Assembly: GCA_030688205.1 (NCBI GenBank)
Contig: JAUYIQ010000056.1
Span: 1 to 41,419, forward strand
Origin: Candidatus Curtissbacteria bacterium
GTDB taxonomy: Bacteria > Patescibacteriota > Microgenomatia > Curtissbacterales > GWA2-41-24
DNA: 41,419 nucleotides
Direction of reading: 5' to 3'
The notes below the pieces were generated by a model, which searched no databases, was not told the DNA's origin, and worked only from the letters and a program-made list of their open reading frames with translations. The translations under genes were made by a program, and so were the position numbers. The stretch's first letter is position 1. Each line of letters opens with the position of its first letter. Below, piece by piece: positions 33,995 to 36,900 of this stretch.

Positions 33995-36900
33995 TAAACA
34001 TCTAAAGTTGCATTTTTCGCATGGGTCTGAATAAAGCGTTTTCTTGGCGGAACTTCATCGCCCATTAGCATTGAGAAGATGTGATCAGCCTCCGCGGCAT
34101 CTTCAATGTTGATTTTTTTCATCATTCTTGACTGGGGGTTCATGGTTGTTTCCCAAAGTTGATCCGGATTCATTTCTCCTAACCCTTTGTATCTTTGGAT
34201 TCCGTATTGCCTGCCTGCAGCTTTTGACTTTATCAGTGAGTTTTTTTCGTCGTCTGTGAAGACATAGTGGAACTCCTTGCCAAAATTTACTTTATATAAG
34301 GGGGGCATTGCGACATAGATGTATCCTCTTTCGAAGAGTTGCGGCATGTAACGGAAGAAAAAAGTTAGAAGAAGAGTCATGATGTGTTCTCCGTCTACAT
34401 CGGCATCTGTCATAATGATAATTCGGTGATAGCGGACTTTGTCGATATTTATCGTGTCCCCTATTCCCGTACCCAGGGCAATAATTAATGTTTTTATTTC
34501 CTCAAATTCCAGAATTTTGTCGAGTCTGGCACGTTCTGTGTTTAAAATTTTTCCTTTAAGCGGCAAAATAGCCTGGAATTTGCGGTCTCTTCCCATTTTT
34601 GCACTGTTATGAACAAATATTCCTGACGCTAGCGCAAAATTGTGTGTATTTGGTATTTCTAAGTCGTACACGTCCATAAGTTTTGATACAGGAGCAACCT
34701 TGACTACTTTATGGTTGTAGTTTATGACTGCTTGCTGCATTTGTAGCCAGTCATTATTAAAAAAGCGTTCTTCGAGTGTTTCTGTTTTTAATAGGTTTTT
34801 GTTATTTGTTGATTTGCGTATTTCATCGTAACTTTGTTTCCATAATATCCCTTCCTGATCAAAGATTTTTTTTAGTGTGCTTATAGAGGCGTTAAAGTAA
34901 GTTTTGTCGTAAGCGATTTTCCTTTTTTTCCTAAATTCCGATGTCCATTGTTCTTTTGTTTTTCTACTTCTCCACTCTATTAATTCAGGATTTTTCCACT
35001 GACTCTTAGCTATTTCAGATAATTTCATCTTATGTTCCGGATGTTTTTCGAAAAATGATCTAGTTCTTAATGCTTGTTCTTTTCTGTGCCAACTAAGACC
35101 CCAATATTTTTTTTGATTCTCAAGAAGTCTTAAATTGTTTTCTTTACGATATTTTTGATTAGCATAGTAAAATTCCAGAAATTTATTTTTCATAAATTTT
35201 TTGTATTGTGGATTAGCCCACTGCTTTTTTGCCCGTTTACTAAGTTGTATTCTCATTTTCGGGGCGAGCATGGTTTGTCTTATTTTTTCGCGATATTGAG
35301 TAGTTTTACGGAGTTTTGCTAATTTTTGCTGAACATCAGGGCGTAATATTGTGTGCTGTGCCATTTGCGCATGGTGTTTTAGGTGGTTTTCTTTTGTGAG
35401 CAGGGTAATGTTGTCTGGATTGTTATTAAGTTTATTAAAGTCTTTATGATGTCTGTGGCTGCCGTCAGTTTTTTTATATGTTCCTCTTTCGATGTTAAAC
35501 TCGTCCGATAAAACGTGAGTAAAAAGCCAACGATTCTGTGCTGGAGAGAAAACGATCTCATATCCTTTAATAGTCATCCATTTTTCAATACGTGAATATT
35601 GTCTATAAAGTGGCATTAATGAGTCTTCCGGTTTTAAGTTTATAGCTTCTTTATATTCACCTGTTCGTAACATGAATTGATGATCTGGAGTGCATATAAT
35701 TTCTTCCCTATTATCGAGAGTTACCTTAACGACTTGGGCATGTTTTTTTGTGATTCTTGGATTTGTGATTTCTTCTATTCCAATATTTCCATCTGATTTA
35801 ATGGTATAACAATAGTTTTTCTTTCCCTGTTTGTAATCTTTTATTAAATCTTTAAAGCTGAGGTTTTTTCCATTTGTTAGGGCTACCTTGGTATTTCCAG
35901 AGAAACAGCCTCCGGCTGATTCTCCTTCCACAAGGTAAATTTCAGAAAGTGCCGGGTCTTTTTCCTGGCAGTCGGTTAGTTTGCCGGGCAGGGTCATTCC
36001 TTCAAGTGCGCCTTTTCTAAGTACCGCTTCTTTCGCAGCACGTGCTGCCAGCCTGGCTTTTGATGCCAGAATAACCTTTTCCATTATTCTTCTGGCTTCT
36101 GTGGGATTCTCTTCCAGGTAAGTTTCTATGCCTTCTCTAACGACAGTGTTGACTATAGGCTGCACTTCAGCGTTACCTAATTTTCCCTTTGTCTGGCCTT
36201 CGAACTGAAGAGTTTCAGAGTTCATCTTGATTGCAACAACTGCAGTTAATCCTTCCCGCATATCATCCCCCGCCAGGTTATCTTCTTTTTCCTTTAGATA
36301 GCCGTTCTTGCGAGCGTAATCATTGATTGCACGGGTTAATGCCATTCGGAAGCCGGTCAAATGAGTGCCGCCTTCTTGAGTATTGATGACGTTTGCAAAA
36401 GATTCCAGGGTTTCACTGTAGCCGGTGTTGTACTGGAACGACGCTTCCACCATGATTTCATTAGAGCTTTTTCCGATATAGAAGGGTTTTTCGTTTACGG
36501 TCTCTTTGTCTTTGTTGAGATGTCGAACAAGCGATTCGATTCCTCCATCAAAATAATAATGAAGCTCAGAACCAGATCTTAAATCGTATAAATGGAAGAA
36601 AAGGCCTGCTATAAGATAGGCTCGTTCTTTAACTCTTTTGGCAAGAACTTTAAAATCGGTTTTTAGGGTTGAGAAGATAGACTTATCTGGCAAGAAGATT
36701 GTGGTAGTGCCGGTTTTGGGAGCTTTGATGAAATCCGGAATTTGGGATTTTTCAGTTGGTTCTACTTTTGTTTGCGGTTTACCGCGTTTATATTCCTGAG
36801 CATAGATTTTGTTGTCTCTGCGAACTTCGACACGCATCCAGTCTGAAAGAGCGTTAACAGCCGAAGCTCCAACACCGTGAAGACCTCCGGATACTTTGTA

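Follow-up and report, generated by a model that had tools for sequence, protein, structure and literature searches.

An Intact HNH-Type GyrB Intein of the Ssp GyrB Family in a Candidatus Curtissbacteria Genome

Introduction

The gyrB gene of a Candidatus Curtissbacteria bacterium (assembly GCA_030688205.1, contig JAUYIQ010000056.1; the 41,419 nucleotides analysed here are called the window) raises a simple question: what is the long insert that splits the Toprim motif of the encoded GyrB, and how did it come to be there? The open reading frame (ORF) spans 33994..37224 on the minus strand, which also holds every other window feature given below, and encodes a GyrB of 1076 amino acids (aa). The insert, of 434 aa, corresponds to GyrB residues 440-873 and to window positions 34606..35907. 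A reading of the sequence alone had proposed that it is an intein lying within the conserved EGxSAGG|S motif, and that its removal leaves a GyrB of 642 aa. The coordinates of that proposal proved exact and all the strings it quoted are present; excision in silico yields the 642-aa protein and restores the junction EGESAGG|SAKMGRD. In relatives, the uninterrupted site reads EG[DE]SAGGSAKQGRD, in GyrBs of 644-691 aa. The comparisons set out below identify the insert as an intact intein belonging to a family already known, the HNH-type GyrB inteins (Ssp GyrB type).

The Splicing Domain

The insert is confirmed as a class-1 intein with its splicing residues intact. The Pfam profile Intein_splicing (PF14890) covers intein residues 10-434 with 71.3 bits (cut-off 35.8), and both ends are also recognized separately: the N-terminal splicing lobe (intein residues 1-105, window 35593..35907) by NCBIfam intein_Nterm (TIGR01445, 45.8 bits vs. 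24.5) and the C-terminal lobe (residues 396-434, window 34606..34722) by intein_Cterm (TIGR01443, 29.6 bits vs. 15.6). A match to intein profiles, which the sequence-only reading had named as a check on its proposal, is thus obtained with all three models, and the Hint domain is present. In an alignment of 105 sequences, residues C1, T73, H76, D415, H433, and N434 are invariant; the block B motif TPDH, also picked out earlier, is located at residues 73-76. The intein terminates in FVHN followed by Ser (+1), and the best 120 homologues all show the pattern C...HN|S at the same site, with Ser+1 in 120/120.

Structural predictions are in line with the profile matches. The AlphaFold model of the intein, built from the 105 aligned sequences, has a mean predicted local distance difference test score (pLDDT) of 87.6, and its N-terminal lobe consists of beta strands with pLDDT > 90. 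The beta-rich lobes (residues 1-104 and 399-433) match the crystal structures of the DnaE, DnaB, RecA, and NrdJ inteins (Foldseek, E 1e-6 to 1e-5). A single gyrB match was found in the window's genome (0.97 Mb, 86.7% complete) and gyrase is essential, from which it follows that the intein presumably must splice. Splicing of the GyrB intein, as well as the DNA cleavage and DNA binding discussed below, are activities that we infer.

A Known Intein Family

The GyrB intein family has been known since the 1990s and is a widely used protein-engineering tool; the Ssp GyrB intein was reportedly first called HNH-type by Dalgaard and colleagues in 1997. In a word-indexed search with the window's intein, 4227 proteins matched at E <= 1e-3, of which the top 120 are all GyrB, carry an intein of 431-434 aa at the identical site, and are 53-71% identical. 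Their named hosts belong mostly to the Candidate Phyla Radiation (CPR), namely Gottesman-, Davies-, Woese-, Moran-, Yanofsky-, and Azambacteria, with a few other labels. Thousands of GyrB proteins, mostly from CPR bacteria, carry the intein.

In a cyanobacterial sample (the phylum of Moorena producens 3L), the nuclease module was found in 34 of 401 genomes. About 25 of the 34 matches are full length, with the module 39-43% identical (E 1e-63 to 1e-74). The 15 cyanobacterial copies that were extracted are all 434-435 aa long and interrupt EGDSAGG|SAKQGRD; across these and the 120 mostly CPR copies, the full length is conserved at 431-435 aa. Alignment with the window's intein is collinear over 434 columns, at 46-49% identity and with one 1-aa indel. 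Cyanobacterial locus L097, with an intein of the 435-aa type, is 49% identical to that of the window, and the identity varies by part (N-lobe 62%, HNH 47%, array 41%, C-lobe 67%). L097 agrees in every residue with the two halves of the Ssp GyrB mini-intein, and is presumably the Synechocystis intein itself. The likeness to the Synechocystis GyrB intein, which had been suggested earlier, is therefore borne out by these collinear cyanobacterial copies at a common site.

The window's intein shares with the cyanobacterial, Ssp GyrB-type inteins both the identical site and the order of parts: Hint N-lobe, HNH domain, helical W array, tail, and Hint C-lobe. It differs from the Ssp GyrB intein in that its host is a CPR bacterium and that the cyanobacterial copies form a separate clade. 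Mini and split Ssp GyrB inteins splice efficiently in E. coli (PMC3620165). Group 22 of the His-Me finger nucleases is given as [quoted passage not shown] (PMC5714182, Table 1). Two phage inteins likewise combine a Hint domain with the same HNH module: SP15_022 of Bacillus phage SP-15, which aligns over residues 1-434 (25% identity, E 8e-25), and the dCTP deaminase intein of Aphanizomenon phage vB_AphaS-CL131. In contrast to the GyrB inteins, both are located in other host proteins and sites and are far more divergent.

Further relatives occur among IMG/VR contigs. Contig IMGVR_UViG_3300033145_001746 (98.9 kb) carries a 432-aa copy, 49% identical, in a very divergent GyrB (L005, 4693..7914). 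The extein there is 45% identical and sits in the extein tree on a branch of length 1.6-1.8. Next to this gene lie an Eco29kI-type restriction enzyme, RNase HII, and a class-V aminotransferase, a neighbourhood that resembles a cellular genome more than a phage and makes the "viral" label doubtful. Two other IMG/VR loci, L006 (2628-3500) and L007 (5552-6316), hold shorter relatives of the intein (about 255-290 aa), 41% and 33% identical, respectively. These end in THNF..HN and continue with SKDV.DA, which points to a host protein other than GyrB. A single-protein scan of viral contigs gave no match.

The Nuclease Domain

The domain that follows the N-terminal lobe (intein residues 106-189, window 35341..35592) matches phrog_7545, "HNH endonuclease" (7.8e-9). 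In the model it comprises strands 117-121, 126-129, 151-154, and 167-170 and a helix at 172-183. The HNH motif itself occupies residues 150-179 (window 35371..35460), and H153, H154, K159, N161, N162, P164, N166, and H175 are invariant in the 105 sequences. As modelled, the beta-beta-alpha-metal fold is present with its conserved His and Asn residues and its metal ligand. A separate model of the whole nuclease module (residues 106-395, pLDDT 90.0) has dozens of phage HNH homing endonucleases among its BFVD matches (Foldseek probability 1.00), the best being the Hint-domain protein of Bacillus phage SP-15 (E 4.8e-6). In the PDB, the top match is I-HmuI (1u3e).

Two results weigh against this assignment. 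The I-HmuI match is weak (E 0.83, probability 0.60), and Pfam HNH_3 remains under its gathering score of 24.8 bits, scoring 18.2 bits on the full intein and 21.5 bits on the domain by itself and aligning over profile positions 22-44 of 46 only. Nevertheless, because of the phrog_7545 match, the structural matches, and the invariant His and Asn residues, the nuclease is on the modelled structure an I-HmuI-like His-Me finger with an intact active site. The earlier suggestion that the centre of the intein carries an HNH pattern rather than LAGLIDADG motifs was correct.

With I-HmuI and the HNH_3/zf-His_Me_endon enzymes, the domain shares the beta-beta-alpha-metal core, the HH..N..N..H pattern, and two preceding beta hairpins. 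The likeness to I-HmuI extends to the overall architecture, in which the nuclease is followed by extended DNA-binding linker modules and then by a C-terminal helical domain. There are also differences. The nuclease of the GyrB intein is nested in a Hint domain, whereas I-HmuI-type enzymes are free-standing or intron-encoded, and its HNH_3 score is under the cut-off. The last metal ligand is His175, in contrast to Asn in I-HmuI. Free-standing HNH genes of the phiKZ type are 35% identical to intein residues 112-187. In the classification of His-Me finger nucleases, homing endonucleases of the I-HmuI/HNH_3 type make up groups 2 and 22 (PMC5714182).

The Helical Array and the W Repeat

C-terminal to the nuclease domain lies a basic array (intein residues 190-352, window 34852..35340) that forms nine helices in the models. 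Lys and Arg number 44 and Asp and Glu 16, giving a net charge of +28. The anchor residues (L196, M213, W230, Y247, W269, F286, W304, W321, and F338) define about eight degenerate 17-aa units, with two deviating spacings (22 and 18 aa). Self-comparison with hhalign, using a profile of 135 sequences, gave a single significant pair: residues 290-316 (window 34960..35040), which overlap the unit at 304-321, against residues 216-242 (window 35182..35262), with E 3.4e-6 and a probability of 88%. A 27-aa unit hidden Markov model (HMM) made from these two clear copies matches only the copies themselves. The sequence-only reading, which had counted at least three repeats, was right that W-rich repeats are present but set their number too low: about eight degenerate units can be traced, and only the two copies at 216-242 and 290-316 are significant by self-comparison.

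The array was compared with other proteins through an external 17-aa unit HMM, built from free-standing W-repeat proteins with the window's intein excluded. This model finds one complete unit at residues 304-321 (window 34945-34998; 13.4 bits, the best single unit) and partial units at residues 230-241 (4.4 bits) and 290-304 (3.9 bits). The whole array scores 15.1 bits, whereas none of 200 shuffled versions exceeded 9.6. A phmmer search with intein residues 186-395 against 1.84 billion representative proteins reached 107 clusters at E <= 1e-3. GyrB inteins, whole or as fragments, account for the strong matches, and the weak matches, spread over multiple stretches, are free-standing tandem-repeat proteins. 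The W-repeat proteins were reached at E 1e-4 to 6e-4, with intein residues 262-329 aligned to several repeats in P0212, P0216, P0217, P0218, P0221, and P0225. These six bear an HNH (PF01844) or GIY-YIG (TIGR01453) nuclease together with a NUMOD1 or NUMOD3 motif.

The free-standing W-repeat proteins (P0212, P0216, P0217, P0218, P0221, P0224, and P0225) are built of exact 17-aa tandem units with the consensus WQDPEYREKMSEASKRLW. The W-to-W spacing is 17 aa in 18 of the 18 cases measured, and P0218 contains about 20 units. In P0221 and P0212 the W repeats are joined to an HNH domain (PF01844). P0217 is an endonuclease of the GIY-YIG group-I-intron type (TIGR01453, 80 bits) with W repeats, the last of which leads straight into a Pfam NUMOD3 motif, and the C-terminal end of P0225 is a NUMOD1/I-TevI-like helix-turn-helix. 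P0212, P0217, P0218, P0221, and P0225 all match phrog_22215 ("unknown function"), a family to which the intein itself gave no reported match up to E 1.

A 17-aa period with an aromatic anchor, plus the N-cap box NPE-[YF]-[RK]-x-K-x-S, appears to be common to the intein, the W-repeat arrays (phrog_22215), and NUMOD3. In contrast to the free-standing arrays, the units of the intein are degenerate and include the spacings of 18 and 22 aa, and one complete unit scores well; set against the consensus W-x-[DN]-P-E-[YF]-R-x-K, the intein has one full and two partial units (about 4 bits). Because of the common period and a similar motif (E-x-[KR]-x-K-[ILM]-S), the W repeat may be kin to NUMOD3. Membership of the intein repeats in NUMOD3 itself (PF07460) was rejected for want of HMMER support: at E up to 10, NUMOD was absent from the array, from 16 family members, and from the free-standing W-repeat proteins, the sole hit being the NUMOD3 beside the W units of P0217.

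The 17-aa W repeat lacks a model in both Pfam and NCBIfam, and the only Pfam hits on its units are near-threshold ones to GerD (PF17898, cut-off 29.5 bits), with 31.2 bits in P0221, 33.1 in P0225, and 29.8 in P0224. These are probably a repeat-driven false positive, and such scores near the gathering cut-off could cause misannotation of W-repeat proteins. A structure search found no analogue of the array in the PDB, and a tblastn search of 50,697 phage records with just the repeat region returned nothing. The helical tail of the nuclease module (intein residues 353-395, window 34723..34851) has three short helices in the models (357-367, 375-382/383, and 387-394/395) and received no family hit in profile searches. 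It is possibly a helix-turn-helix, given the modelled helices and by analogy with the W-repeat relative that ends in one.

Because the array is strongly basic and its repeats are also found alongside nucleases of two unrelated folds and alongside helix-turn-helix domains, the reading as a modular DNA-binding arm is supported, with DNA binding itself expected by analogy. This agrees with the earlier suggestion that the repeats probably act as DNA-binding modules, apparently homologous repeats being present in free-standing HNH and GIY-YIG homing endonucleases. A bolder proposal, that the 17-aa W helical repeat could be an undescribed and reusable DNA-reading module of homing endonucleases, is a rather improbable conjecture at present.

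Distribution and Mini-Inteins

Relatives of the window's genome rarely carry the module: it was found in 1 of 60, in a genome of the same class and another family (54% identity). The same-genus GyrB, 91% identical at the protein level, has an uninterrupted site, and 21 of 21 GyrBs found in the same family are unsplit there (14 of these were read across the site, and two end at a contig edge yet span the site). In an even sample of the window's phylum, the module occurs in 16 of 401 genomes, with the window's genome included and one copy bearing an internal deletion.

A scan of one genome per species extends this distribution to at least 566 confirmed relatives. Its first query was a mini-intein, as a result of which mini-inteins ranked first and the named full-length cyanobacterial copies were not returned. 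The best 80 of the relatives are mini-inteins of 143-228 aa, most of them read at the exact GyrB site. Among these 80, bacterial hosts include Cyanobacteriota, Chloroflexota, Gemmatimonadota, Acidobacteriota, Planctomycetia, Omnitrophota, and Saccharibacteria, and archaeal hosts include Methanoperedens, Methanothrix, Thermoplasmata, and Woese-, Pace-, and Nanoarchaeota. Several mini or shortened inteins at the GyrB site keep pieces of the HNH domain, with differing deletion end points (L080, L084, L073, L067 (Methanoperedens), L081 (Saccharibacteria), L075, L013, and G787:C3:2164-2736). In two Methanoperedens copies, profile positions 5-54 abut 274-289 (E 4e-22). Such remnants with varied end points indicate that these mini-inteins are deletion derivatives of the full-length form, as a homing cycle would predict.

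Homing, Inheritance and Transfer

The window's element is very probably a bifunctional class-1 intein of the Ssp GyrB family, which would both splice and home and would owe its history to a homing cycle. The Hint domain (residues 1-105 and 396-434) would excise the intein after translation and ligate EGESAGG to SAKMGRD. Cys1 would undergo the N-S acyl shift, with Thr73 and His76 acting in block B; Ser+1 would take part in the transesterification and His433-Asn434 in succinimide formation, so that the product is a normal 642-aa GyrB. The inserted module (HNH domain 106-189, basic array 190-352, and tail 353-395) would serve as the homing endonuclease, binding the uninterrupted gyrB site along a long stretch of DNA and nicking or cutting it. 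Repair off the intein-bearing allele would then copy the intein into the cut gyrB. Over longer times the family would invade, become fixed, shed its nuclease by internal deletion so that mini-inteins are left, and be lost, a cycle that would explain the patchy distribution.

Several results weigh against such a history, the first of them being the absence of any mark of recent arrival. The intein has a GC content of 33.5%, compared with 43.9% for the extein, a gap due mostly to amino-acid make-up. At third codon positions (GC3) it stands at 0.297, within the spread of the window genes (mean 0.366, sd 0.042, minimum 0.279), and compositional evidence of recent transfer was accordingly rejected. 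No co-conversion tract was seen in comparison with the same-genus allele, third-position identity being about 54% along the whole gene; such a tract would be invisible because synonymous sites are nearly saturated. These observations fit an alternative in which the intein splices and the nuclease no longer homes, leaving a vertically inherited passenger whose module is kept for some other reason or has become inactive recently. The closest copy, P0002, also agrees with this alternative, as it differs about as co-descent predicts (extein 82%, intein 71% identical), the intein diverging faster than GyrB. Moreover, no GyrB intein nuclease is known to cut. On the other hand, the HNH catalytic residues are all invariant and the length is conserved over 135 copies, whereas in lineages where selection lapses the module is deleted, giving mini-inteins. 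In addition, the same-genus GyrB and every same-family GyrB found lack the intein, which fits poorly with steady inheritance. A passenger that has ceased to home is thus an unlikely explanation.

The remaining evidence against a homing history comes from the trees. In the intein tree, which is star-like, the cyanobacterial copies group as one clade (support 100). Host groups are well resolved in the extein tree, where the window falls within the Microgenomatia-type CPR, adjoining Daviesbacteria. Intein and extein conflict in the free tree, but approximately unbiased (AU) tests fail to reject one clade uniting the inteins of Microgenomatia-type hosts (p 0.53) or one uniting the inteins of all CPR hosts (p 0.31). 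Since host-congruent clades are kept, tree incongruence was rejected as proof of inter-phylum transfer. Both the AU tests and the single cyanobacterial clade are what would be expected of an ancient GyrB intein that descended vertically, with very many independent and precise losses and no transfer. The number of losses is one difficulty, as only about 4-6% of the sampled species in two phyla carry the intein. Intein and extein identity correlate weakly across pairs (Mantel r 0.37), and beyond the closest relative intein identity levels off at about 55% from class to phylum level, whatever the extein distance. This plateau counts against vertical descent, as does the faster evolution of the intein than of GyrB in closely related pairs, and the same allele occurs in the very divergent GyrB of the IMG/VR contig. 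Purely vertical descent is accordingly regarded as improbable.

Horizontal spread of the intein allele is likely rather than demonstrated; it is favoured because of the patchy distribution, the weak identity correlation, and the plateau near 55%. The spread across very distant lineages proposed earlier stands in that the allele is common to such lineages and patchy among them, and is tempered by the host-congruent clades that the AU tests keep. Finally, an insert that is not spliced, being either a permanent GyrB domain or an assembly chimera, has nothing in its favour except that the source assembly is a metagenome-type draft of 105 contigs, and it is exceedingly improbable given that thousands of assemblies made independently show the insert in frame at the identical residue, that it interrupts the catalytic Toprim motif, and that it retains all its splicing residues.

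The Host Gene and a Second Intein

The two exteins are otherwise those of an ordinary GyrB. The N-extein (GyrB residues 1-439, window 35908..37224) comprises the ATPase and transducer domains (PF02518, PF00204) and ends in EGESAGG. The C-extein (window 33994..34605) starts with SAKMGRD and includes the remaining Toprim portion (PF01751), the GyrB C-terminal domain (PF00986), and the stop codon. The precursor with the intein in place still passes the TIGR01059 gyrB equivalog model (883.6 bits vs. a cut-off of 882.4). At position +4 of the C-extein (window 34594-34596) the window's GyrB has Met (SAKMGRD). This position is Gln (SAKQGRD) in 14 of the 14 intein-less GyrBs read from the same genus and family, and Met in 9 of 120 intein-bearing GyrB homologues. 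Compared with the same-genus allele, several Ser codons beside the insertion site change codon family (TCA/AGT, AGT/TCT). Three small ORFs of 205, 107, and 164 aa (window 32570-33994) lie between gyrB and gyrA, packed closely against their neighbours.

A second intein is present elsewhere in the window's genome. It is located on contig C86 (L002, 793..3174, minus strand) in SufB, with the junctions VHYVEG|CFIAGARV and VVSHN|CTAPVY. This intein has LAGLIDADG-type motifs (LVGYYLAEGHV and LWLGDGSY), and its family differs from that of the GyrB intein.

Implications

As regards the intein itself, the window provides one more CPR copy of a known family, and little is at stake. The family as a whole offers a natural homing-cycle series at a single site, in which full-length, internally deleted, and mini forms are spread across Bacteria and Archaea and the closest relatives of the window's genome are free of the intein. 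The least-charted element encountered here is the W repeat, which lies outside the curated domain libraries and which, in degenerate form, appears to make up the putative DNA-binding arm of the GyrB intein. If the repeat were indeed a reusable DNA-reading module, each of its units might engage a constant number of base pairs, and arrays of such units would set the length and specificity of the target in a modular and perhaps re-programmable manner.

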